42,608 nt of DNA from Anaerolineales bacterium (GCA_036477195.1 JAZGCZ010000079.1:1-42608); one strand, 5' to 3'. Numbered from the stretch's first letter, positions 19,298 to 30,272 are shown. The notes: generated by a model not told the origin, from the letters alone. Made by a program: numbers and translations.

Positions 19298-19320
19298 TAC
19301 TTGCAGCCCCCTCTAACCTA

Positions 19321-19358
19321 AAAAAATTCGAATCTTTAAGAACTCGCATTCTTAAGGA
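19321..19358 (-). terminator. Possible intrinsic terminator downstream of radA and the small ORF
   Basis: Inverted repeat tctttaagaa/ttcttaagga (9 of 10 complementary, 6-nt loop) at 19333-19358. On the minus strand a T7 run follows after 5 nt (plus-strand aaaaaaa at 19321-19327). The stem is AT-rich and the spacer to the T-run is long. Confidence 0.3.
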
Positions 19359-22537: not shown

Positions 22538-22563
22538 AAAAAAAAGCTGCCCATATAGGCAGC
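22538..22563 (-). terminator. Rho-independent terminator of clpC
   Basis: On the minus strand: GCTGCC-tatatg-GGCAGC hairpin (22563-22546) followed by T8 (plus-strand A8 at 22538-22545), about 27 nt after the clpC stop. Confidence 0.7.
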
Positions 22564-22590: not shown

Positions 22591-25080
22591 TCAGCCGGCG
22601 GCGAGAATCTCACCTTCCTCTTCTGGTTCCGGGGACCCGTGTGTGAGAAACAGCTCGTCATCGGCTACGTCCACCAGAACGGTGTCGCCGTCCTGAAATT
22701 CACCCGTTAGCAGCGCATCCGACAATACATCCTCCACTTTGGCCTGAATCACGCGTTTAAGCGGACGGGCCCCCATCTCTGGTTCATAGCCCAATACGGC
22801 CAACCGCTCCCGTGCTTCGTCCGTCGCGCGTAACTTCAGATTGTGATCTTCGAGCCGCAGAGCTACTTTGGCCATCTCCAGATCCACGATGGCTTTGATC
22901 TGCTCCATGCTGAGCGCATGGAAAACAATCACCGAGTCGACGCGATTGATGAATTCGGGTCGGAACTCCTTCTTAAGCTCTTCAGTTAGGCGGCGGTGCA
23001 TTTCATCGTATGCTAGCTGCCCCTCCAGCTCATCATCGAGCTCAGTCGAAAAACCCAACCGAGTCTGTTTCATGATCAATTCTGCGCCCAGGTTCGAAGT
23101 CATTACGATCAGAGCATGGCGGAAATCTACCTTCCGCCCTCGCGCATCAGTCAGTTGGCCCTCTTCCATGATTTGCAAGAGCATGTTGTGGGCTTCGTTG
23201 TGCGCCTTTTCGATCTCATCAAACACAATAATGGAATAAGGTCGCCTACGGATGGCTTCCGTCAGCTGTCCCGCGTCATCATATCCGACGTAACCGGGCG
23301 GAGCACCAACCAGGCGGCTGATCGAGTGACGCTCCATAAACTCAGACATATCGATTTGAACAAGTGCTTCTTCGCTGCCGAATAAAAATTCAGCTAGCGC
23401 CTTCGTCAGCTCCGTCTTGCCGACTCCGGTCGGGCCAAGAAACACAAAGGATCCGACGGGACGCTTGGGATCCTTAAGCCCTGCGCGCGCCCTTCGCACT
23501 GCCTTGGCGATGGCCTCAATTGCCTCATCCTGGCCAATTATCCGCTCGTGGAGTGCGTCTTCCATTTGCAGCAAGCGCTCTGATTCCTCTTGGGCAATTT
23601 GCATCACCGGTACGCCGGTCCACATAGAAACAACTTCGGCGATATCTTCCGCGGTTACCTTAGGGCTGTCCTCGTTGCGCTCCCAGCCAATGCGCAGCTG
23701 GGCCATTTTGTCTTCGAGCTCCGCCTCGCGGTCCATCAGTTCCTGAGCGTCGTCATAGCGCGCTTCTTCCATGGCGATCTTATGAGCATTCCGCGTTTCA
23801 CGCAGTTCGCGCGTGGCTTCCTGCATCGAGCGTGCGGCGGGGCTCTTATACATACGCACCCTGGAGGCCGACTCGTCGATGAGATCGATGGCCTTATCGG
23901 GCAAGAAGCGATCCGGTACGTATCTGGCGGAGAGGTGAGTAGCGGCCTCTAACGCTTCATCGGTAATGATTAGCTTGTGATGGTTCTCATACGGCGCCCG
24001 AATGCCGCGTAGTATCTCGATCGTCTCCTCGACGGTGGGCTCATCAACAAATACCGGCTGGAAGCGACGCTCAAGAGCGGAATCGCTCTCAATGTACTTA
24101 CGGTACTCATCCTGCGTTGTGGCCCCAATCACCTGCAGCTCGCCACGCGATAGGGCCGGTTTCAATATGTTCGCGGCGTCCACGGATGAGCCTGCAGAGC
24201 CTGCGCCTACCAGCATGTGAACTTCGTCGATAAATAATATTGCTCCAGACGATTTCAACTCATCGATGACCCGCTTGAGTCGCTCCTCAAACTGGCCACG
24301 ATACATGGTTCCCGCTACAAGCGAGCCAACGTCCAACTGGAGCACGCGCTTACCTAGAAGCGGCTCGGGTGTCTCACCGTCGACAATACGCTGGGCGAGT
24401 CCCTCTGCAATGGCCGTTTTCCCAACGCCCGGATCACCAATCAATGCAGGGTTGTTCTTCGTGCGCCTGGCAAGGATTTGGATGACTCGCTCGATCTCCA
24501 TCTGGCGGCCGATTACCGGATCCAGCTTGCCTTCTTCTGCCATTCCGGTCAGATCAGTCGCAAGCTGATCGATCATGGGCGTCTTGACTTTCTGTTCTTT
24601 GCGCTCTCGACTGGAAGTCCGGCCCGGGTGCCGGGTGGGGGTTTCCTGAAGCGCCCTACGCGTCTGGCGGCGAATTTGTTCTGGGGTGATTCCGAGCCTG
24701 CGGAGCACATCCATGCCCACACCCTCACCCTGTCGGACCATTCCAAGCAGTAGGTGTTCGGTTCCGATGTAGTGGTGCCCCATGCGCCGGGCCTCTTCGA
24801 TGCCCATCTGGAGCACTTGCTCGGTTCCAGGAGCCAATTCGATGCGGCTGCTTGGATTTCGTCCGACGCCCGTCAGCCGTTCGACCATCTCTTTGACGCG
24901 AGCTGGATCCAATCCGAGGTCGCGCAAGACGCGCCCGGCGATCCCACCCTCTTCTCGGATCAATCCAAGAAGCAGATGTTCGGTGCCGATATAGTTATGA
25001 TGCAAGCGCTCAGCCTCCTCGTGCGCTAGGCTGAGCACCCTTCTCGCCCGTTGTGTGAAGCGTTCCATCTTATCGGCCAA
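22591..25080 (-). CDS. clpC: ATP-dependent Clp protease ATP-binding subunit ClpC
   Basis: Two Clp_N repeats (FTQRARRVL..; [12 protein letters not shown] twice), AAA-1 GDPGVGKTA, a middle coiled-coil/UVR-like region, AAA-2 GPTGVGKTE, and a ClpB_D2-small tail. Start is TTG 25080 (GGGGAG upstream) or ATG 25068. Confidence 0.95.
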
Positions 25081-25162
25081 GATTTAGTCTCCCCGGAGTT
25101 CCATGTGCTTTCTCGATTTTACCAAAGAGTCCCGTCGGGGGCTCCGAGTCAGGATTAACGTC

Positions 25163-26755
25163 CTATGAAGCGGTTTCGGCTTCCTCCGGCTCTTCAGAAC
25201 TCAATCCAGTCTCCTCTACCATCTCACTGAGCTCCTGCAGCTCTGCTTCTGGCTCGATAGTACCTTGATTTTCGTCCTCTGCAGGGGCTGGATCCATTTC
25301 CTCGTTCGCCGGTTCAATCTCGTCAGGGGCTTCTTGATTTGGTTCTAGCTCAGGGTCCCCGGCGTCAATATCGGACTCTGGGTCCTCTGTGTCAGTCTCG
25401 GGGTCGGTCTCAGACTGAAGAGCATCTTCACCATCTGTGTCCTGAACGAGAGCCTCTTCCGATTCGAGTTCAGTATCTGTGTCAAGATTGAGGGCTTCTT
25501 CCGCTTCAAGTTCAGCATCGAAGTCCGCTACGGGCTCCACTTCTTGTGCCTCATCTGTCTCCTGGACGGCGGCTTCCCAATCCGTGTCGGCGTAGTCCGA
25601 AGACTCTACGCGCTTTAAGCTCAAGCCAATTCTATGTCGAAGAGCATCGACGCGAATCACGCGCAGGGTCATTATTTGCCCTTCTTGGACTACCTCACTT
25701 GGGTGTGTGATATGTCGATCTGAAAGCTCGGATATATGGACCAGTCCCTCGATGCCATATTCCTCCAGGCCCACAAGCTTTGCGAACGCACCGAACTTAG
25801 TAAGCTTTGTAATCGTGCCCTCAACAAGCTGACCTTCATCGTACTGTTCCAGGATTTTCTCCCAAGGATTTTCCTCAAGCTCGCGGATAGACAGGCTGAT
25901 GCGATTACGCTCTGGATCTACACCAAGCACCTTGACCTTGACCTCTTGCCCAACACTAAGCACCTCGCGAGGATTGCTTACTCGCTTCCAGGAGATCTCG
26001 GAGATGTGCACTAATCCATCCGCTCCACCAATATCAACAAACGCTCCGAAGTCAGCCAGGCTGATCACGTGCCCGGTGCGGACTTCGCCAATCGCCAGTT
26101 CCGATATCAAACGTTCCTTGAGCGCTTCGCGCGCTTCACGTGCCGCAGAGCGCTCTGACAATATCAGGCGGTTTCGCTGCCGGTCCACTTCAATCACCTT
26201 AGCGACCAGGTGCTCACCAACCATGCTCCCCCAGCGATCTTCAGGTGTTTCCCCATCTGCTCGGCGACGCCGAGCCAGGCTGACCTGCGATGCCGGAACA
26301 AATCCTCGAAGTTGGCCCATCTTAACGATGAGGCCGCCCTTGTTGTAGCCCGTCACTTCGCCCTCGAAGATATCTTTCGATTCCAGCAGCTCCTCTGCCT
26401 GCTTCCAGTCCTGCTCCTCTTCGGCACGGACCAAGGAAAGCTCAGGCGCGCCGTTGCGGCCGCCTGGCCGTATCACGTACACGCTGATTTCTTGTCCGAC
26501 GTCTAAGGTTGCTCGTTGATCTTCGGGGAGTTGTTCAAGTTCTCGAGCTGAAATTACGCCTTCTGATTTGGCACCGATGTCGACCAACACATCGGCTTCT
26601 GTGGCACGCACGATGGTGCCAACGCGAATCTCGCCTCGCTTGGGCGCATTTAGCACATATTTTTCGGACTCCAGGAGCGCGTCCATCGGGTGTGGTTCAG
26701 CTTTGTTCTTACCCTCTGCGTCACCCGCTGCGCTCTCCTTCTCCTCGTCTATCAT
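25163..26755 (-). CDS. rpsA: 30S ribosomal protein S1 with a long acidic C-terminal tail
   Basis: Several S1 OB-fold repeats (G..V.G.V....DFGAFVD / GL(V)HISE patterns, at least 4 recognisable). The last ~140 aa are a D/E/T/P-rich low-complexity tail. Confidence 0.9.
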   Translation of the reverse strand: MIDEEKESAAGDAEGKNKAEPHPMDALLESEKYVLNAPKRGEIRVGTIVRATEADVLVDIGAKSEGVISARELEQLPEDQRATLDVGQEISVYVIRPGGRNGAPELSLVRAEEEQDWKQAEELLESKDIFEGEVTGYNKGGLIVKMGQLRGFVPASQVSLARRRRADGETPEDRWGSMVGEHLVAKVIEVDRQRNRLILSERSAAREAREALKERLISELAIGEVRTGHVISLADFGAFVDIGGADGLVHISEISWKRVSNPREVLSVGQEVKVKVLGVDPERNRISLSIRELEENPWEKILEQYDEGQLVEGTITKLTKFGAFAKLVGLEEYGIEGLVHISELSDRHITHPSEVVQEGQIMTLRVIRVDALRHRIGLSLKRVESSDYADTDWEAAVQETDEAQEVEPVADFDAELEAEEALNLDTDTELESEEALVQDTDGEDALQSETDPETDTEDPESDIDAGDPELEPNQEAPDEIEPANEEMDPAPAEDENQGTIEPEAELQELSEMVEETGLSSEEPEEAETAS

Positions 26756-26892: not shown

Positions 26893-28002
26893 TTGGCACC
26901 TGTATATCCGTTTACTGCAATCGTCGGGCAAGAGCGCATGCGCCGCGCGCTAGTGTTGAATGCCGTAAATCCTCGTATCGGCGGAGTGCTGATCCGGGGG
27001 GAACGCGGTACCGCTAAATCCACGGCCGCACGCGCGCTGGCAGCTCTGCTGCCCGAAGTCAGTGTAGTCGCCCGATGCCGGTTCCGCTGCGATCCGGAGC
27101 AGCCCACCACATGGTGCACAGAATGCCGCGAGCGAGCGGCGTCTGGTGAAGAGCTTCCTTCAAAAGTCTTTCGAACATCATTCGTCGACCTGCCGGTTTC
27201 AGCAACGGAGGATCGAGTGGTCGGCACCCTGGACATCGAGCGCGCCATCAAGGAAGGCGAGCGGCACTTCGAGCCAGGTGTGTTGGCGTCTGCTAACCGC
27301 GGTTTGCTCTATATCGATGAAGTGAATCTGCTGGACGATCATGTCGTGGATCTGTTGCTGGACTCAGCTGCCCTGGGCATGAACATCGTTGAGCGAGAAG
27401 GCATTTCATTTAGTCATCCTTCCCGCTATATCCTGGTCGGCACAATGAATCCTGAAGAAGGGGACCTTAGGCCCCAGCTGCTCGATCGCTTCGCGCTGTC
27501 AGTTGACATTCGAGGTCTATCAGACCCGGACGATCGAGTGGCTATTATGGAGCGCAATCTAGCGTTTGAGCAGGACCCGGTTGGATTTCGCGAGGAGTGG
27601 ATCGAGAGCGAACTCGAGCTCTCCGAGCGAATCGAAACCGCGCGCAAAACTGTCGATAAAGTGAGTTACGAGGTGCAGAACCTTCATGCAATCGCAGCTC
27701 TCACCTCTTCATTGCATGTCGATGGCCATCGGGCGGACCTTGTGATTTTGAAGGCCGCAAAGGCTCATGCAGCCTTCGAAGGTCGAAAAGCTATCGATGA
27801 ATCCGATATCGCCCGCGCGGCAGAGCTCGCGCTTCCCCACCGTTTGAGGCGCGGTCCTTTTCAACAGGCAGAAATCAAGCTCACCGATCTAGAAGACCGA
27901 ATCGAGCAGATCCAAAGCCAGGCGGGCGGCTCGCCGCAGTCAGAGCCTGAACCGTTGGAAGAGCAGGAGCTCGACCGAAAAAAAGTCAGCGCCCGGGCAT
28001 AG
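26893..28002 (+). CDS. ChlI/BchI-family AAA+ ATPase (Mg-chelatase subunit I-like)
   Basis: YPFTAIVGQERMRRALVLNAV, Walker A RGERGTAKST, Walker B LLYIDEVNLLDDH, sensor and Arg-finger region GTMNPEEGDLRPQLLDRF. The C-terminus runs into an acidic, Pro-rich SPQSEPEPLEEQELD linker. TTG start. Confidence 0.9.
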   Translation: MAPVYPFTAIVGQERMRRALVLNAVNPRIGGVLIRGERGTAKSTAARALAALLPEVSVVARCRFRCDPEQPTTWCTECRERAASGEELPSKVFRTSFVDLPVSATEDRVVGTLDIERAIKEGERHFEPGVLASANRGLLYIDEVNLLDDHVVDLLLDSAALGMNIVEREGISFSHPSRYILVGTMNPEEGDLRPQLLDRFALSVDIRGLSDPDDRVAIMERNLAFEQDPVGFREEWIESELELSERIETARKTVDKVSYEVQNLHAIAALTSSLHVDGHRADLVILKAAKAHAAFEGRKAIDESDIARAAELALPHRLRRGPFQQAEIKLTDLEDRIEQIQSQAGGSPQSEPEPLEEQELDRKKVSARA

Positions 28003-28008
28003 CCCAGG
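27965..28008 (+). other. Candidate -1 frameshift (or transcriptional slippage) cassette: AGGAG, 8 nt, A_AAA_AAA, 8 nt, GC hairpin
   Basis: A7 run at 27978-27984 is in X_XXY_YYZ register with the ChlI-like frame (cgA AAA AAA gtc). AGGAG lies at 27965-27969. The hairpin is CCGGGC-ata-GCCC(a)GG at 27993-28008. The -1 frame is open from 27951 straight into the VWA ORF. Confidence 0.35.
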
Positions 28009-28112
28009 AATCTGAACAAGAAAGCAAAGAGCTTGGGCAGGCCAAGCCTGCTGAACAAACACTCGTAGACTCCCTTAGCGCCCGCTGGTGGGAGGGTGGT
28101 GATAAGATCAAA

Positions 28113-28949
28113 GTGGGTGCCGCATTTTCCCCCCGGCGTTTGCAAAACCCCATCGATCGCATAACCCGCAAGCATGGCGGCCGTCGGACCCTTACCCGAA
28201 CGGATCGCAAGCGCGGCCGCTACGTCTCGGCCAGACCCGCCGAGGACCGCACCACCGATATTGCCTTCGACGCCACCATACGAGCCGCCGCTCCGCATCA
28301 GAAACACCGGTCCAAGAAGCGCGTGGCATTTGCCATCCGACCCTCGGATCTTCATCGAAAGGTCCGCATTCGAAAAGCGTCCAACTTGATCCTATTTGTG
28401 GTGGATGCATCCTGGTCCATGGCGGTGGCGGAACGCATGTCAGCCACGAAAGGCGCCATCCTTTCTTTGCTCAACGACGCTTACCAGCGCCGGGATCGGG
28501 TGGGGCTTGTTGTATTCCAGAAGGATCGCGCGCTGACTGTGCTGCCACCTACAAACTCGGTGCGGCTCGCGCAGCATGCATTGGCAGACATTCCCGTTGG
28601 GGGGAAGACTCCTTTGTCCGCAGGACTCACGCTCGCCCTCGAAACCTTTACAAAGGAACGGCTGAGCCATCCCGAGGTCCTTCCTCTCATGGTGCTGTTG
28701 ACAGATGGGGCAGGGAACGTCTCGTTAGGGGGCTTGCCGCCTCAGGAGGAAGCAATGCTGGTAGCGGACCGTATTCGAGAAAGCGAAATCCGGTCCGTGG
28801 TAATCAATATGGAGCATGCGGCTTTCGACCAAGGTTTGGCCAACGCGATAGCAGACAGATTAGGTGCCCCCTGCTACACGCAGCAAGAACTCAGAGCTGA
28901 ACACCTGTACCATGCGGTTCGACAGGAGACGGAAATCGCTTCAGGATAG
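28113..28949 (+). CDS. VWA (integrin-I-like) domain protein equivalent to the C-terminal half of Mg-chelatase subunit D
   Basis: RGRYV...DIAFDATIRAAAPHQ, the MIDAS motif VVDASWSM, and PPTNS...GGKTPL match the BchD/ChlD C-terminal half. The first canonical start is GTG 28113, but the same frame is open and linker-like (E/Q/K/P-rich) back to 27951, overlapping the ChlI-like 3' end. Confidence 0.85.
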   Translation: MGAAFSPRRLQNPIDRITRKHGGRRTLTRTDRKRGRYVSARPAEDRTTDIAFDATIRAAAPHQKHRSKKRVAFAIRPSDLHRKVRIRKASNLILFVVDASWSMAVAERMSATKGAILSLLNDAYQRRDRVGLVVFQKDRALTVLPPTNSVRLAQHALADIPVGGKTPLSAGLTLALETFTKERLSHPEVLPLMVLLTDGAGNVSLGGLPPQEEAMLVADRIRESEIRSVVINMEHAAFDQGLANAIADRLGAPCYTQQELRAEHLYHAVRQETEIASG

Positions 28950-29051: not shown

Positions 29052-30272
29052 CTAATTGCTGAGCTTTCTTAGGAGCCTGCTTTTGCGGTGTTCAATCTCG
29101 GAAGAGCTCTGATCCCGCTCCCACCCTTTTGGCCATTCGCCTACAACACCCAGTGCCACCTCGGCCCACTCTAGGGCTTGTGACAGGTCTCTGGCCTCCC
29201 ACTCGTAATACATCGCTAGTTCGATGCACGGAGATGGGTCATCGGGCGCTACTGCGTGCCATTCGATCCAACTGGGTTCAGCCTGCTCCCGGCAATTTTG
29301 GCGTTTCAGCATTGCCGTCAGATGTTTGAGCGCCTCAGCGCGCAGCGTGTCATTGGGAGCACCTCGCGCTGCTGCTCGATAGGCCAATTCAGCCTCAGCC
29401 GTTCGGCCAATCCTCTCATGCCAGCGGGCGACCGCAAGCGCTTCCCCTCCCGCTAGCCCGTTCGGATCCTGGTTAAGATGTCTTTCCAGAATAGCCGACG
29501 AAAGTCCGACCAGGGAAAGGATGTCGATGGCATTGTGATAGATCACTCGGATCATATCGGAGGCATCGCCTGTTCGCAGGTAGTTTAAATACATTCCGGG
29601 GATTAGCTCCCCGGGTACGTCTTCTTCGGACCGTTCGACCTCGAGCACGTGGCGTTCCAAGGTGCCTAGCCGGCAATTGCTCAGGGTCTTGCTCCATAGG
29701 CGTCGCGAGGGGTATAGCAGATCGAGGTGTGGTCGGCTCGAGAGCCTCCAGCGATCGCGCACTGCGATTGTGTAGCGAGATTCTAGAATCGGCAGATCAA
29801 ACGAACGGCCATTGAACGTCACCAACCCTTCCACGCCCTTGAGGTCAGCGCGCAACAGCCGCAGAGTTGCCGCCTCCTCCTCCGGATCGCGCAGGAAGTA
29901 CTGCCGAAGAAGGAACTCCCCCTTCTCGAAGGTACCCACACCGATCAAGAACCCTAAAGTACCTGCTCCTCCCGAAAGACCGGTCGTCTCGATGTCCACA
30001 AAGCCCCAGCGATGAATCTTCGAGGCCTTCAGACCCGTATCATTACCCACCTCTGCCGCGAGGCTGGAGGCATAGGTCAGCACCTCCTTCAGGGGGCGAC
30101 TCCCATGAAGGTAATCAGACGGATAGCGAGTATCGATATGATAGGCGAGGCCGCTCTCGGTTTTGATCTCCTCACCTTGTCGTAGCTCCCGGATTTTGAC
30201 TCGGCGCCGAGGCCGTGCTCGGGAACGACCTTGCTCGAGTCGCTCAAGACGGCGCCTTAGATCACTGGACAT
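29052..30272 (-). CDS. YprB-like RNase H-fold (3'-5' exonuclease-like) protein with a TPR-like C-terminal domain
   Basis: WGFVDIETTGL (DxE exonuclease motif I), TFNGRSFDLPIL, and YHNAIDILSL (H..D motif III) fit the YprB/RNase_H_2-type fold. The C-terminal ~120 aa are helical-repeat-like (AEAELAYRAA.., ALEWAEVAL). Confidence 0.7.
   Translation of the reverse strand: MSSDLRRRLERLEQGRSRARPRRRVKIRELRQGEEIKTESGLAYHIDTRYPSDYLHGSRPLKEVLTYASSLAAEVGNDTGLKASKIHRWGFVDIETTGLSGGAGTLGFLIGVGTFEKGEFLLRQYFLRDPEEEAATLRLLRADLKGVEGLVTFNGRSFDLPILESRYTIAVRDRWRLSSRPHLDLLYPSRRLWSKTLSNCRLGTLERHVLEVERSEEDVPGELIPGMYLNYLRTGDASDMIRVIYHNAIDILSLVGLSSAILERHLNQDPNGLAGGEALAVARWHERIGRTAEAELAYRAAARGAPNDTLRAEALKHLTAMLKRQNCREQAEPSWIEWHAVAPDDPSPCIELAMYYEWEARDLSQALEWAEVALGVVGEWPKGWERDQSSSEIEHRKSRLLRKLSN

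Follow-up and report, generated by a model that had tools for sequence, protein, structure and literature searches.

The window, by which we mean the whole analysed stretch of 42,608 nucleotides from an Anaerolineales bacterium (GCA_036477195.1, JAZGCZ010000079.1:1-42608), contains an ORF for a ChlI/BchI-like ATPase which is overlapped at its 3′ end, in the -1 frame, by an ORF for a VWA protein. The following features were distinguished at this locus:

26893-28002, + strand: zero-frame ORF of 369 aa with a TTG start, comprising the ChlI/BchI-like AAA+ ATPase and the start of an acidic linker
27965-27969, + strand: AGGAG, contained in CAG GAG (Q-E) of the acidic linker; spacing to the heptamer, 8 nt (5′ side)
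27978-27984, + strand: slippery run A7 in the cgA_AAA_AAA register, putative -1 shift site
27984-28949, + strand: -1-frame continuation of 321 codons (linker, AAPxQ region, VWA/MIDAS domain, stop)
27985-28112, + strand: stretch from the run to the GTG, coding in the -1 frame (...KPAEQTLVDSLSARWWEGGDKIK), with the WWEGG motif at 28086-28100
27992-28008, + strand: GC hairpin of 6 bp with a 1x1 mismatch and the loop AUA, 7 nt 3′ of the heptamer
28113-28115, + strand: GTG, the gene-caller start of a 278-aa 'VWA protein'; this start codon is not conserved

Direct reading of the sequence showed that the zero-frame ORF has the C-terminus ...EEQELDRKKVSARA* and ends at TAG 28000-28002, 15 nt past the run, while the shifted frame runs on for 321 codons. 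The codons CGA AAA AAA occupy positions 27976-27984, and A7 is therefore in the X_XXY_YYZ register. In the -1 frame, a TGA at 27948 is followed by an open stretch that begins at 27951 and leads into the VWA ORF, up to the stop at 28947-28949, with no ATG, GTG or TTG before GTG 28113. When 26893-27984 is joined to the -1 frame, a trans-frame product of 364 + 321 = 685 aa is obtained. In all these points the sequence agrees with the original prediction of a 'dnaX-like' -1 recoding cassette that would fuse the ATPase to the VWA protein. Only three A runs of at least 7 nt are present in the window, and the other two (19320-19326 and 22538-22545) fall into gaps between the listed long ORFs. A tRNA scan of the window revealed no tRNA genes.

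The zero-frame ORF matches Mg_chelatase, AAA_5 and AAA_lid_2 in Pfam and the BchI-ChlI model TIGR02030 (425 bits, model positions 1-323 of 337), and the solved structures nearest to the ChlI-like part are those of ChlI (8osf, 6l8d, 1g8p; E = 1e-103). The -1-frame ORF matches VWA_2 and VWA in Pfam; the MIDAS motif of its VWA domain is DASWS, and the nearest solved relative of this part is the BchD VWA domain 2x31. Both ORFs also match TIGR02442, the 'putative cobaltochelatase' model of a single-chain ChlI+VWA protein, with a curated cut-off of 779.45 bits. The zero-frame ORF covers model positions 1-346 and the -1-frame ORF positions 358-639, with separate scores of 509.1 and 263.7, so that neither half is above the cut-off alone. 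The virtual fusion gives one end-to-end match (positions 1-639 of 641) with 781.1 bits. Thus the D-subunit architecture predicted for the trans-frame product is borne out by a full-length match above the cut-off, and natural in-frame relatives (P0016-P0018, L007, L021) are collinear with it.

The AAA+ I module, the acidic/Pro-rich linker and the C-terminal VWA/MIDAS domain are shared with the three-gene Mg chelatase (ChlI/BchI, ChlD/BchD, ChlH/BchH) and with the CobN-ChlI-ChlD cobaltochelatase. Unlike in these canonical chelatases, I and D would come from one gene rather than from separate genes, and the D-like AAA+ module would be the same as the I-like one, not a diverged copy. In addition, the equivalog cut-offs of canonical ChlI/BchI (TIGR02030, 466.95) and ChlD/BchD (TIGR02031, 499.55) are not reached, the scores being 422.9-425.3 and 428.8, respectively, and the Walker A motif is GERGTAKST instead of GDRGTGKST.

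The junction was compared in 79 species-level relatives from Anaerolineae/Chloroflexota, which together with the window make 80 sequences; the related loci comprise 936,509 nt. In line with the prediction, in 71 of the 79 relatives, as in the window, the VWA part is in frame f-1 relative to a ChlI part in frame f, and three have both parts in frame. An A run is found at the junction in all 80 sequences (A9 in 52, A10 in 23, A7 in four and A11 in one). The zero-frame stop is located 1-19 nt past the run in all -1 loci, and in several of them the two frames overlap across the run alone, e.g., over 13 nt (AAAAAAAGCCTGA) in L018, which pins the shift to the run. Elsewhere in the 936.5 kb we found 81 A/T runs of at least 7 nt, none of them longer than 8, and the junction run is the sole A/T run of at least 9 nt.

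At the A9 and A10 loci the register of the run varies freely. For the window's clade, seven further contigs from at least five samples were retrieved (NCBI, ENA, JGI, Logan), one of which shares 99.95% identity with the window. Each of these contigs carries A7 in an unchanged register, and A_AAA_AAA is found in 11 of the 11 sequences of this clade. Both the ChlI and the VWA halves are under purifying selection. The caveat that a 54-codon open stretch may occur by chance could be set aside, since about 80 other species have conserved the run together with its frame relation and the peptide read in the -1 frame. On this comparison of sequences, the A7 junction is neither a sequence error nor a chance open frame.

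As assembled, eight of the 79 relatives have another frame relation: besides the three in-frame loci there are five '+1' loci, which are one A short. All five '+1' loci are MFD MAGs (5/16 vs 0/63, p = 1.9e-4), and two other MFD loci contain extra frameshifts within the ChlI part, which suggests artefacts of assembly and not a biological difference. The in-frame variants retain the run (A10 in L007, A11 in L021, A10 in L088 and A9 in L090). When relatives and short metagenome contigs were considered together, L007, L021 and L088 (the last vs L089) proved to be in frame with one A more than their nearest relatives; L088 (A10, fused) and L089 (A9, split) are close relatives with a one-A difference.

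It was predicted that the run is accompanied by a Shine-Dalgarno (SD)-like element and a hairpin, as in E. coli dnaX, where -1 frameshifting involves an SD-like element, A_AAA_AAG and a downstream stem-loop. AGGAG is indeed present 8 nt upstream of the heptamer at 27965-27969. It is kept in the window, L081 and L002, but is replaced by AGGAA in L001, L003 and L082-L086 and by CAAGAA in L087. Either AGGAG or GGAGG occurs within 18 nt of the run in eight of 80 loci, at scattered positions. SD-like 4-mers were found at most 18 nt upstream in 38/80 loci vs 102/400 background windows; their positions are likewise scattered and largely correspond to Glu/Gln codons. Since the closest relatives have lost AGGAG and the 5-mer is found in those eight loci only, an SD-like stimulator was rejected, and the AGGAG 5′ of the heptamer is probably incidental.

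The downstream GC hairpin is also present, although it extends over 27992-28008 and begins 7 nt after the heptamer, and not over 27993-28008 at a distance of 8 nt, as was predicted. It is formed by the pairs C92-G08 and C93-G07, the 1x1 mismatch, and the pairs G95-C05, G96-C04, G97-C03 and C98-G02; the zero-frame stop TAG sits within its loop and 3′ arm. The 45 nt after the run, which include the hairpin, have an MFE of -10.1 kcal/mol (z = -1.5 vs shuffles). In the A7 clade the hairpin is retained in 10 of 11 sequences and broken in L003; its stems are invariant, with 0 covarying pairs and no compensatory changes, at nucleotides that are also constrained by the two overlapping frames. Family-wide, downstream structure is not in excess over control windows of the same gene (z -0.38 vs -0.26, p = 0.45), and a family-wide 3′ structure was rejected on this ground. 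No Rfam match was obtained for the whole window at the gathering threshold or for 27850-28150 at E up to 1. The hairpin at 27992-28008 is a possible local stimulator of the shift.

Thus the window resembles E. coli dnaX in having a lysine-codon heptamer in X_XXY_YYZ register, with AGGAG and a hairpin at 8 nt 5′ and 7 nt 3′ of it, respectively, and in that two proteins with a common N-terminal AAA+ module would be made from one gene. A 'dnaX-like' cassette is not supported: the SD-like and hairpin elements are not conserved at the chelatase-like loci, the hairpin being without covariation or a family-wide counterpart, and frameshifting would yield the longer protein in the window but yields the shorter one in E. 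coli dnaX. Beyond the AAA+ fold, the dnaX proteins are unrelated to those of the window.

Taken as a whole, the locus of this uncultured Anaerolineae bacterium very probably represents one chelatase-like gene of the fs-chlD type that is expressed through programmed -1 recoding, with the A run 27978-27984 as the shift site. Most ribosomes would read CGA AAA AAA GTC... up to TAG 28000 and produce the 'small subunit', a ChlI-like AAA+ protein of 369 aa. Some ribosomes would slip back one nucleotide at the run, passing from ...R K K to S Q R P G I A..., and would then translate the linker, the AAPxQ region and the VWA/MIDAS domain up to 28949. The slipped product would be a 685-aa ChlD-like 'medium subunit' with an N-terminal AAA+ module identical to that of the small subunit, and the I:D ratio would be set by the slip efficiency; the two products would presumably form an I/D-type AAA+ complex. 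The central claim of the original prediction, that the linker and VWA domain are attached to the ChlI-like AAA+ module by -1 recoding, so that I-like and D-like proteins come from one gene, is strongly supported by the comparative evidence. For A7 in A_AAA_AAA, tandem -1 slippage of tRNA-Lys on the ribosome appears to be the most likely main route. Slippage of RNA polymerase (RNAP) inserting one A would give an identical protein; it probably contributes here, and more in the A9-A11 relatives. The junction peptide ...ELDRKKSQRPGIAQ... would be the same by the ribosomal or the transcriptional route, and for the window locus we infer both the split between these routes and the ratio of the products.

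Public annotations give the VWA part a gene of its own (278-324 aa; 'VWA domain-containing protein / Mg-chelatase subunit D'), which implies two independent genes, with translation of the second one either starting at GTG 28113 or arising past TAG 28000 by reinitiation or coupling, and an incidental open -1 stretch. A purine-rich GGAGGG is located 17-22 nt 5′ of the GTG, and the original prediction had kept independent initiation as a caveat, with GAGGG as a possible SD. However, these nucleotides are the W-E-G-G codons of the conserved W-W-E-G-G and are also present in relatives without a start codon at this place. An alignment of the 80 -1-frame translations revealed protein-level conservation in the -1 frame over the 43 codons from the run to the GTG, with an almost invariant WWEGG, and substitutions are biased to -1-frame third positions (16/25 vs L001, 16/26 vs L002, 22/38 vs L003). 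The alignment column of the GTG contains V/I/T/A/P/S, in 41 of the 72 -1-type loci neither ATG nor GTG nor TTG occurs from the run to WWEGG, the starts in database gene models of the VWA ORF are inconsistent (278-324 aa), and the TIGR02442 match in the -1 frame begins at 28014, 5′ of the GTG. The start at GTG 28113 was rejected on the grounds of the conserved upstream peptide and the variable start codon; the caveat is effectively refuted, and we consider two independent genes extremely unlikely. The suggestion that the true run is A8 in a plain fused gene, misread by sequencing or assembly, or that the gene is a recent pseudogene, draws on the proneness of homopolymers to errors and on the additional A of the in-frame L007, L021 and L088. 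It was rejected, and its probability is close to negligible, since the -1 arrangement recurs in 71 other species-level genomes, the seven additional contigs of the clade, including the nearly identical one, all have A7, and both halves are under purifying selection. The one-A variants between close relatives (L088 vs L089; L007 and L021 vs their neighbours) and the five loci short by one A are also what could be expected from a phase-variable switch at the DNA level, in which replication slippage in a hypermutable tract would toggle the gene between split (I only) and fused (D only) states without RNA or protein recoding. Free toggling would, however, give a more even mix than the consensus of split -1 loci (71/79 species), A7 is short for efficient replication slippage, and the '+1' cases are those restricted to MFD MAGs, where ChlI frameshifts also occur. 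Moreover, in the Mg chelatase architecture the I/D-type complex requires I and D together, and both products would thus be needed in one cell. Such a switch is very improbable.

Less remote is a mainly transcriptional variant of the recoding model, in which RNAP slips on the A/T run, some mRNAs gain one A and encode the fusion, and the two-product outcome is unchanged. In this case the runs of 76 of the 80 family members (A9-A11) would be significant, because efficient slippage of bacterial RNAP is known for runs of 9 A or T (PMC5009743). In E. coli reporters with Mg-chelatase fs-gene cassettes, in which ribosomal and transcriptional slippage were not separated, the efficiency went up with run length, from 10% (A_AAA_AAA) to 40% (A9) and 63% (A11) frameshifting (PMC3711429, Antonov et al. 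2013 NAR); A7 was the weakest run tested, at about 10% in this heterologous host (PMC3711429). The free variation of register among the A9/A10 loci is in agreement with this variant, and the retention of the run in the in-frame L007, L021, L088 and L090 fits a mixed mRNA population whichever length is encoded. On the other hand, the window's clade has no run longer than A7, which is too short for RNAP to slip efficiently. The A_AAA_AAA register is retained throughout the 11 A7 sequences, which is relevant to ribosomal slippage alone, although this is weak evidence because they are related by descent. There is also the small hairpin downstream of the run, and its 7-nt spacing would suit a stimulator of ribosomal -1 frameshifting. 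We regard a mainly transcriptional origin of the fusion as rather unlikely, and programmed -1 recoding with a predominantly ribosomal route as the preferred reading for the window.

It should be mentioned that recoding of chlD-type genes has been known since 2013 and that the window is a further member of the fs-chlD family. The statement of the original prediction that no recoding had been described in this family is thus incorrect: it was published and tested in 2013 (PMC3711429) and reviewed in 2016 (Atkins et al. 2016, PMC5009743). For Anaerolineaceae it was reported in 2022, when fs-chlD genes with frameshift signals were listed for Anaerolinea, Ornatilinea, Longilinea, Levilinea and Brevefilum (PMC9227772, Kuznetsov, Milenkin & Antonov 2022). 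The window shares with the fs-chlD genes a ChlI-like ORF overlapped by a -1-frame VWA ORF, a poly-A or A_AAA_AAR shift site inside the overlap, annotation as two adjacent genes, the homology of the fusion to single-ORF chelatase proteins, and the proposed production of small and medium subunits from one gene. It differs in the minimal A7 of its clade, nearly all other Anaerolineae relatives having A9-A11, and its lineage was not found in the published fs-chlD papers, as far as they were checked. In contrast to the downstream stimulatory structure that is 'usually' present in fs-chlD genes (PMC9227772), no such structure is borne out family-wide in the present test.

Comparison with dnaX of Thermus thermophilus, where transcriptional slippage at a 9-nt homopolymer gives mRNAs with extra bases, revealed that: (i) the A9-A11 runs of most relatives have the length of efficient RNAP slippage; (ii) the in-frame L007, L021, L088 and L090 would similarly produce the full-length protein from unslipped and a truncated one from slipped mRNA; while (iii) in the window and 71 of the 79 relatives the genomic frame is split, the slipped species would give the long product, and A7 is short. 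The fs-chlD, or 'magnesium chelatase', recoding cluster was reportedly also the subject of a study by Antonov in MBE in 2020, which is cited in PMC9227772.

The large chelatase subunit was searched for among ORFs of at least 800 aa in the window and the 80 loci, with the ORFs of L009, L059 and L078 left out. Neither the 42.6-kb window nor the flanking ±6 kb of the 80 loci yielded an ORF resembling CobN or ChlH, which is a further difference from the canonical chelatases. The two ORFs of this size in the window are ClpC and PriA (Pfam). Minus-strand ORFs of ~805-908 aa, located upstream in 24 loci, were taken as ClpC, a homologue of which was detected by tblastn in 32/80 loci; four ORFs of at least 950 aa look, by eye and from their sequence only, like SecA, adhesin-like repeat proteins and a SARP/TPR-type regulator. 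Brevefilum fermentans, also of Anaerolineae, is without the large subunit gene cobN/chlH and without the CHL and B12 pathways (PMC9227772). Since no large subunit was found nearby, the 'chelatase subunit' function is an assumption, and an I/D pair without a visible H/CobN partner may have a non-chelatase role, a question already raised in PMC9227772.

Such recoding has already been published, along with its validation by experiment and its presence in Anaerolineaceae, and the window does not represent a new kind of system. The fs-chlD family gains a well-documented lineage, with the signal in ~80 Anaerolineae species and the run as the only long homopolymer in 0.9 Mb. In public databases the window locus and hundreds of its relatives are called as two genes, 'ATP-binding protein' and 'VWA domain-containing protein', with arbitrary starts; such loci would be better entered as one recoded gene with two products. 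The contrast between A7 and A9-11 provides a natural series for telling ribosomal from transcriptional slippage. It can be tentatively suggested, as a possibility that we hold to be doubtful, that in the window's clade the run contracted to the minimal A_AAA_AAA in one productive register, perhaps relying on the hairpin, and that one orthologous gene thereby exchanged transcriptional slippage for purely ribosomal frameshifting, with a D:I ratio that would probably be lower.

The ATPase ORF of the ChlI/BchI type and the VWA ORF that continues it in the -1 frame are parts of one ancestral gene with a conserved slippery run, a -1 frame relation and a nearby zero-frame stop. All sequence features noted in the original prediction (ORF ends, A7 register, open -1 frame, AGGAG and hairpin) were found in the window:

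26893-28002, plus strand: ChlI-like ORF, 369 aa, ending …EEQELDRKKVSARA* at TAG 28000-28002
26998-27024, plus strand: Walker A motif GERGTAKST, residues 36-44 of the ChlI-like ORF
27951-28949, plus strand: -1 frame, open throughout and closed upstream by TGA at 27948
27965-27969, plus strand: AGGAG, 8 nt before the heptamer
27978-27984, plus strand: slippery A7, codons CGA AAA AAA (27976-27984), X_XXY_YYZ register
27992-28008, plus strand: small hairpin, 7 nt past the heptamer

In conceptual translation, a -1 slip reads …LDRKK|SQRPGIAQESEQESKELGQAKPAEQTLVDSLSARWWEGGDKIKVGAAF… and gives a product of 685 aa. The whole window contains three A runs of at least 7 nt, and the two besides the junction run lie between long ORFs (A7 at 19320-19326 and A8 at 22538-22545). 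The latter, located between a convergent BtrH_N-domain gene and clpC, may belong to a terminator.

The ChlI-like ORF matched the Pfam families Mg_chelatase, AAA_5 and AAA_lid_2, and the -1-frame ORF matched VWA_2 and VWA. The NCBIfam model TIGR02442 ("putative cobaltochelatase"), a single-chain model of 641 positions with a curated cut-off of 779.45 bits, was covered by the former at positions 1-346 and by the -1-frame translation at positions 358-639, the second match beginning at nt 28014, upstream of the annotated GTG. Each half alone stayed under the cut-off; the virtual -1 fusion aligned in a single stretch (1-639/641) with 781.1 bits, just over it. The cut-offs of the canonical ChlI and ChlD equivalogs in NCBIfam were not reached. 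The nearest solved structures were ChlI (8osf, 6l8d, 1g8p) and the BchD VWA domain (2x31), and the MIDAS motif DASWS, the Walker B motif LLYIDE and the Walker A variant were all found. The Walker A motif has Ala at the position of the second Gly of ChlI/BchI (GDRGTGKST in 8osf). This form is kept in 66 of 76 relatives, with GERGTGKST in nine, and judging by the motif it may alter the ATPase activity of both products. In precomputed annotations PF26791 ("AAPxQ"), a family that Pfam defined recently, sits between the linker and VWA at ~28270-28300 (…AFDATIRAAAPHQ…).

For comparison, a scan that sampled each species by one genome yielded 80 Anaerolineae/Chloroflexota loci with 61-90% amino acid identity in the VWA part, Longilinea and Anaerolinea MAGs among them; frame relations were counted in the 79 loci whose contig includes the junction. 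The predicted arrangement held among orthologs: the VWA part lies in the -1 frame relative to the ChlI part in 71 of 79 loci, and an A run is present at the junction in every locus (A9 in 52, A10 in 23, A7 in four and A11 in one, the window included). All -1 loci have a zero-frame stop 1-19 nt past the run. Many loci have a -1 frame that becomes open only inside the run; in one of them (L018) the frames can be joined only at the run, since they overlap by just 13 nt (AAAAAAAGCCTGA). Elsewhere in 936,509 nt of the related loci, 70 A7/T7 and 11 A8/T8 runs were detected and none of at least 9 nt.

Seven more contigs of the window's clade (L081-L087, from samples in NCBI, ENA, JGI and Logan) all carry A7 in the same register, one of them, L081, at 99.95% identity with the window. 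An assembly error or a pseudogene is therefore ruled out for practical purposes. Independent initiation of the VWA ORF at GTG 28113, the first ATG, GTG or TTG in the -1 frame from 27951, was also rejected. The GAGGG proposed earlier as its possible SD in fact represents the W-E-G-G codons, and public gene callers place the start of the VWA product inconsistently (278-324 aa). The -1-frame peptide between the run and this GTG can be aligned in all 80 sequences, with conserved motifs (…E-P…Q-x-V-F-D…A-x-W-W-E-G-G-x-K-V-K-x-G…), while the column of the GTG itself varies (V/I/T/A/P/S). Over the 43 codons before the GTG, 16 of 25 (L001), 16 of 26 (L002) and 22 of 38 (L003) substitutions fall at third positions of the -1 frame, and 41 of the 72 loci of the -1 type lack any canonical start codon from the run to WWEGG.

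Five loci (L025, L030, L034, L043 and L050) showed a "+1" relation. All belong to the MFD set of MAGs (5/16 vs 0/63 others, Fisher p = 1.9e-4), which we take to be nanopore assemblies. Each has one A less than its nearest relatives, and one added A would restore the -1 relation and the nearby stop; two other MFD loci (L048, L060) contain extra frameshifts inside the ChlI part. The "+1" state is thus probably due to homopolymer under-calls and not biology. In three loci (L007, L021 and L013) the two parts are fused in frame, the first two exceeding their relatives by one A. Among further related contigs, L088 is in frame with A10 and L090 with A9, and L089, near-identical to L088, is split with A9. 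Whether natural or assembly-made, these variants still keep a long A run. Slippage on them would give the short product, as in the dnaX arrangement and the reverse of the window.

The proposed dnaX-like tripartite cassette of SD-like motif, A7 and hairpin is not supported. AGGAG is intact in the window, L081 and L002, and is replaced by AGGAA in L001, L003 and L082-L086 and by CAAGAA in L087; family-wide, AGGAG or GGAGG occurs within 18 nt in only 8 of 80 loci. SD-like 4-mers are only slightly enriched (38/80 vs 102/400 background windows); the linker is rich in Glu/Gln, and their positions in it are scattered. The hairpin (CC.GGGC-NUA-GCCC.GG) is found in 10 of 11 A7-clade sequences with no compensatory changes, four pairs being invariant and two broken in L003; its nucleotides are also constrained by the stop codon and two overlapping reading frames. 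The 45 nt past the run have an MFE of -10.1 kcal/mol in the window (z = -1.5) and no excess structure family-wide (mean z -0.38 vs -0.26 in controls, Wilcoxon p = 0.45), and no Rfam family matched the searched sequence. The conserved elements are the run itself and the zero-frame stop shortly after it. The five-residue zero-frame tail past the run (VSARA*, 27985-28002) is conserved in the A7 clade. In L001, L003 and L082-L087 its change CGG to AGG is synonymous in the zero frame and replaces Pro by Gln in the -1 frame, which hints that this dual-coded tail may be constrained by the zero frame or RNA structure besides the -1 frame.

According to the original prediction no recoding had been described in this family; published work contradicts this (PMC3711429; PMC5009743; PMC9227772). 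Antonov et al. (2013) grouped -1 fs-genes, annotated as two neighbors, into a "magnesium chelatase" cluster in which the Chloroflexi genus Herpetosiphon is included, and measured frameshifting of 63% (A11), 40% (A9) and 10% (A_AAA_AAA) in E. coli reporters (PMC3711429). Atkins et al. (2016) review this recoding under the heading "Magnesium chelatase: also regulatory?" (PMC5009743). [quoted passage not shown] Frameshifted chlD (fs-chlD) genes with frameshift signals are reported for Anaerolinea thermophila, Ornatilinea, Longilinea, Levilinea and Brevefilum (Kuznetsov, Milenkin and Antonov, 2022, PMC9227772).

We regard the site as real, strongly conserved programmed -1 recoding and as one more case in the fs-chlD family already published rather than a new type of system. 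It is very probable that recoding here yields a short I-like and a long D-like product; that such cassettes give both is taken from the literature. The main route in the window would be tandem -1 slippage of tRNA-Lys on A_AAA_AAA, because A7 is short for RNA polymerase slippage and all A7 sequences share one productive register. Transcriptional slippage is likely important in the A9-A11 relatives, and the in-frame variants that keep the run (L088, L090) fit a mechanism like that of Thermus dnaX, with a mixed population of mRNAs. Both routes yield an identical protein, and neither computation nor mass spectrometry can separate them. The locus offers an annotation correction and a natural A7-versus-A9-11 series.

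The neighbors of fs-chlD are housekeeping or stress genes, in the window those for PriA, RadA, ClpC, ribosomal protein S1, an RNase_H_2-family protein, GAF response-regulator kinases, DnaJ and an HtrA-like protease. No tetrapyrrole genes were found near fs-chlD, and no CobN/ChlH-like ORFs among the examined ORFs of at least 800 aa in the window or the ±6 kb flanks of the 80 loci. Brevefilum fermentans (Anaerolineae) lacks cobN/chlH and the CHL/B12 pathways, and the role of its I+D complex is therefore unassigned (PMC9227772). Gene order around fs-chlD is conserved, with S1 divergently upstream in 51 of 80 loci and, further out, ClpC in 32 of the 80 (22591-26755, minus strand, in the window); in the closest relatives the RNase_H_2-family gene is convergently downstream (29052-30272, minus strand, in the window). 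The S1 homologue (25163-26755, minus strand, 530 aa) consists of four S1 repeats followed by an extremely acidic C-terminal tail of ~130 residues, reading …DTDTELESEEALVQDTDGED…EEPEEAETAS.
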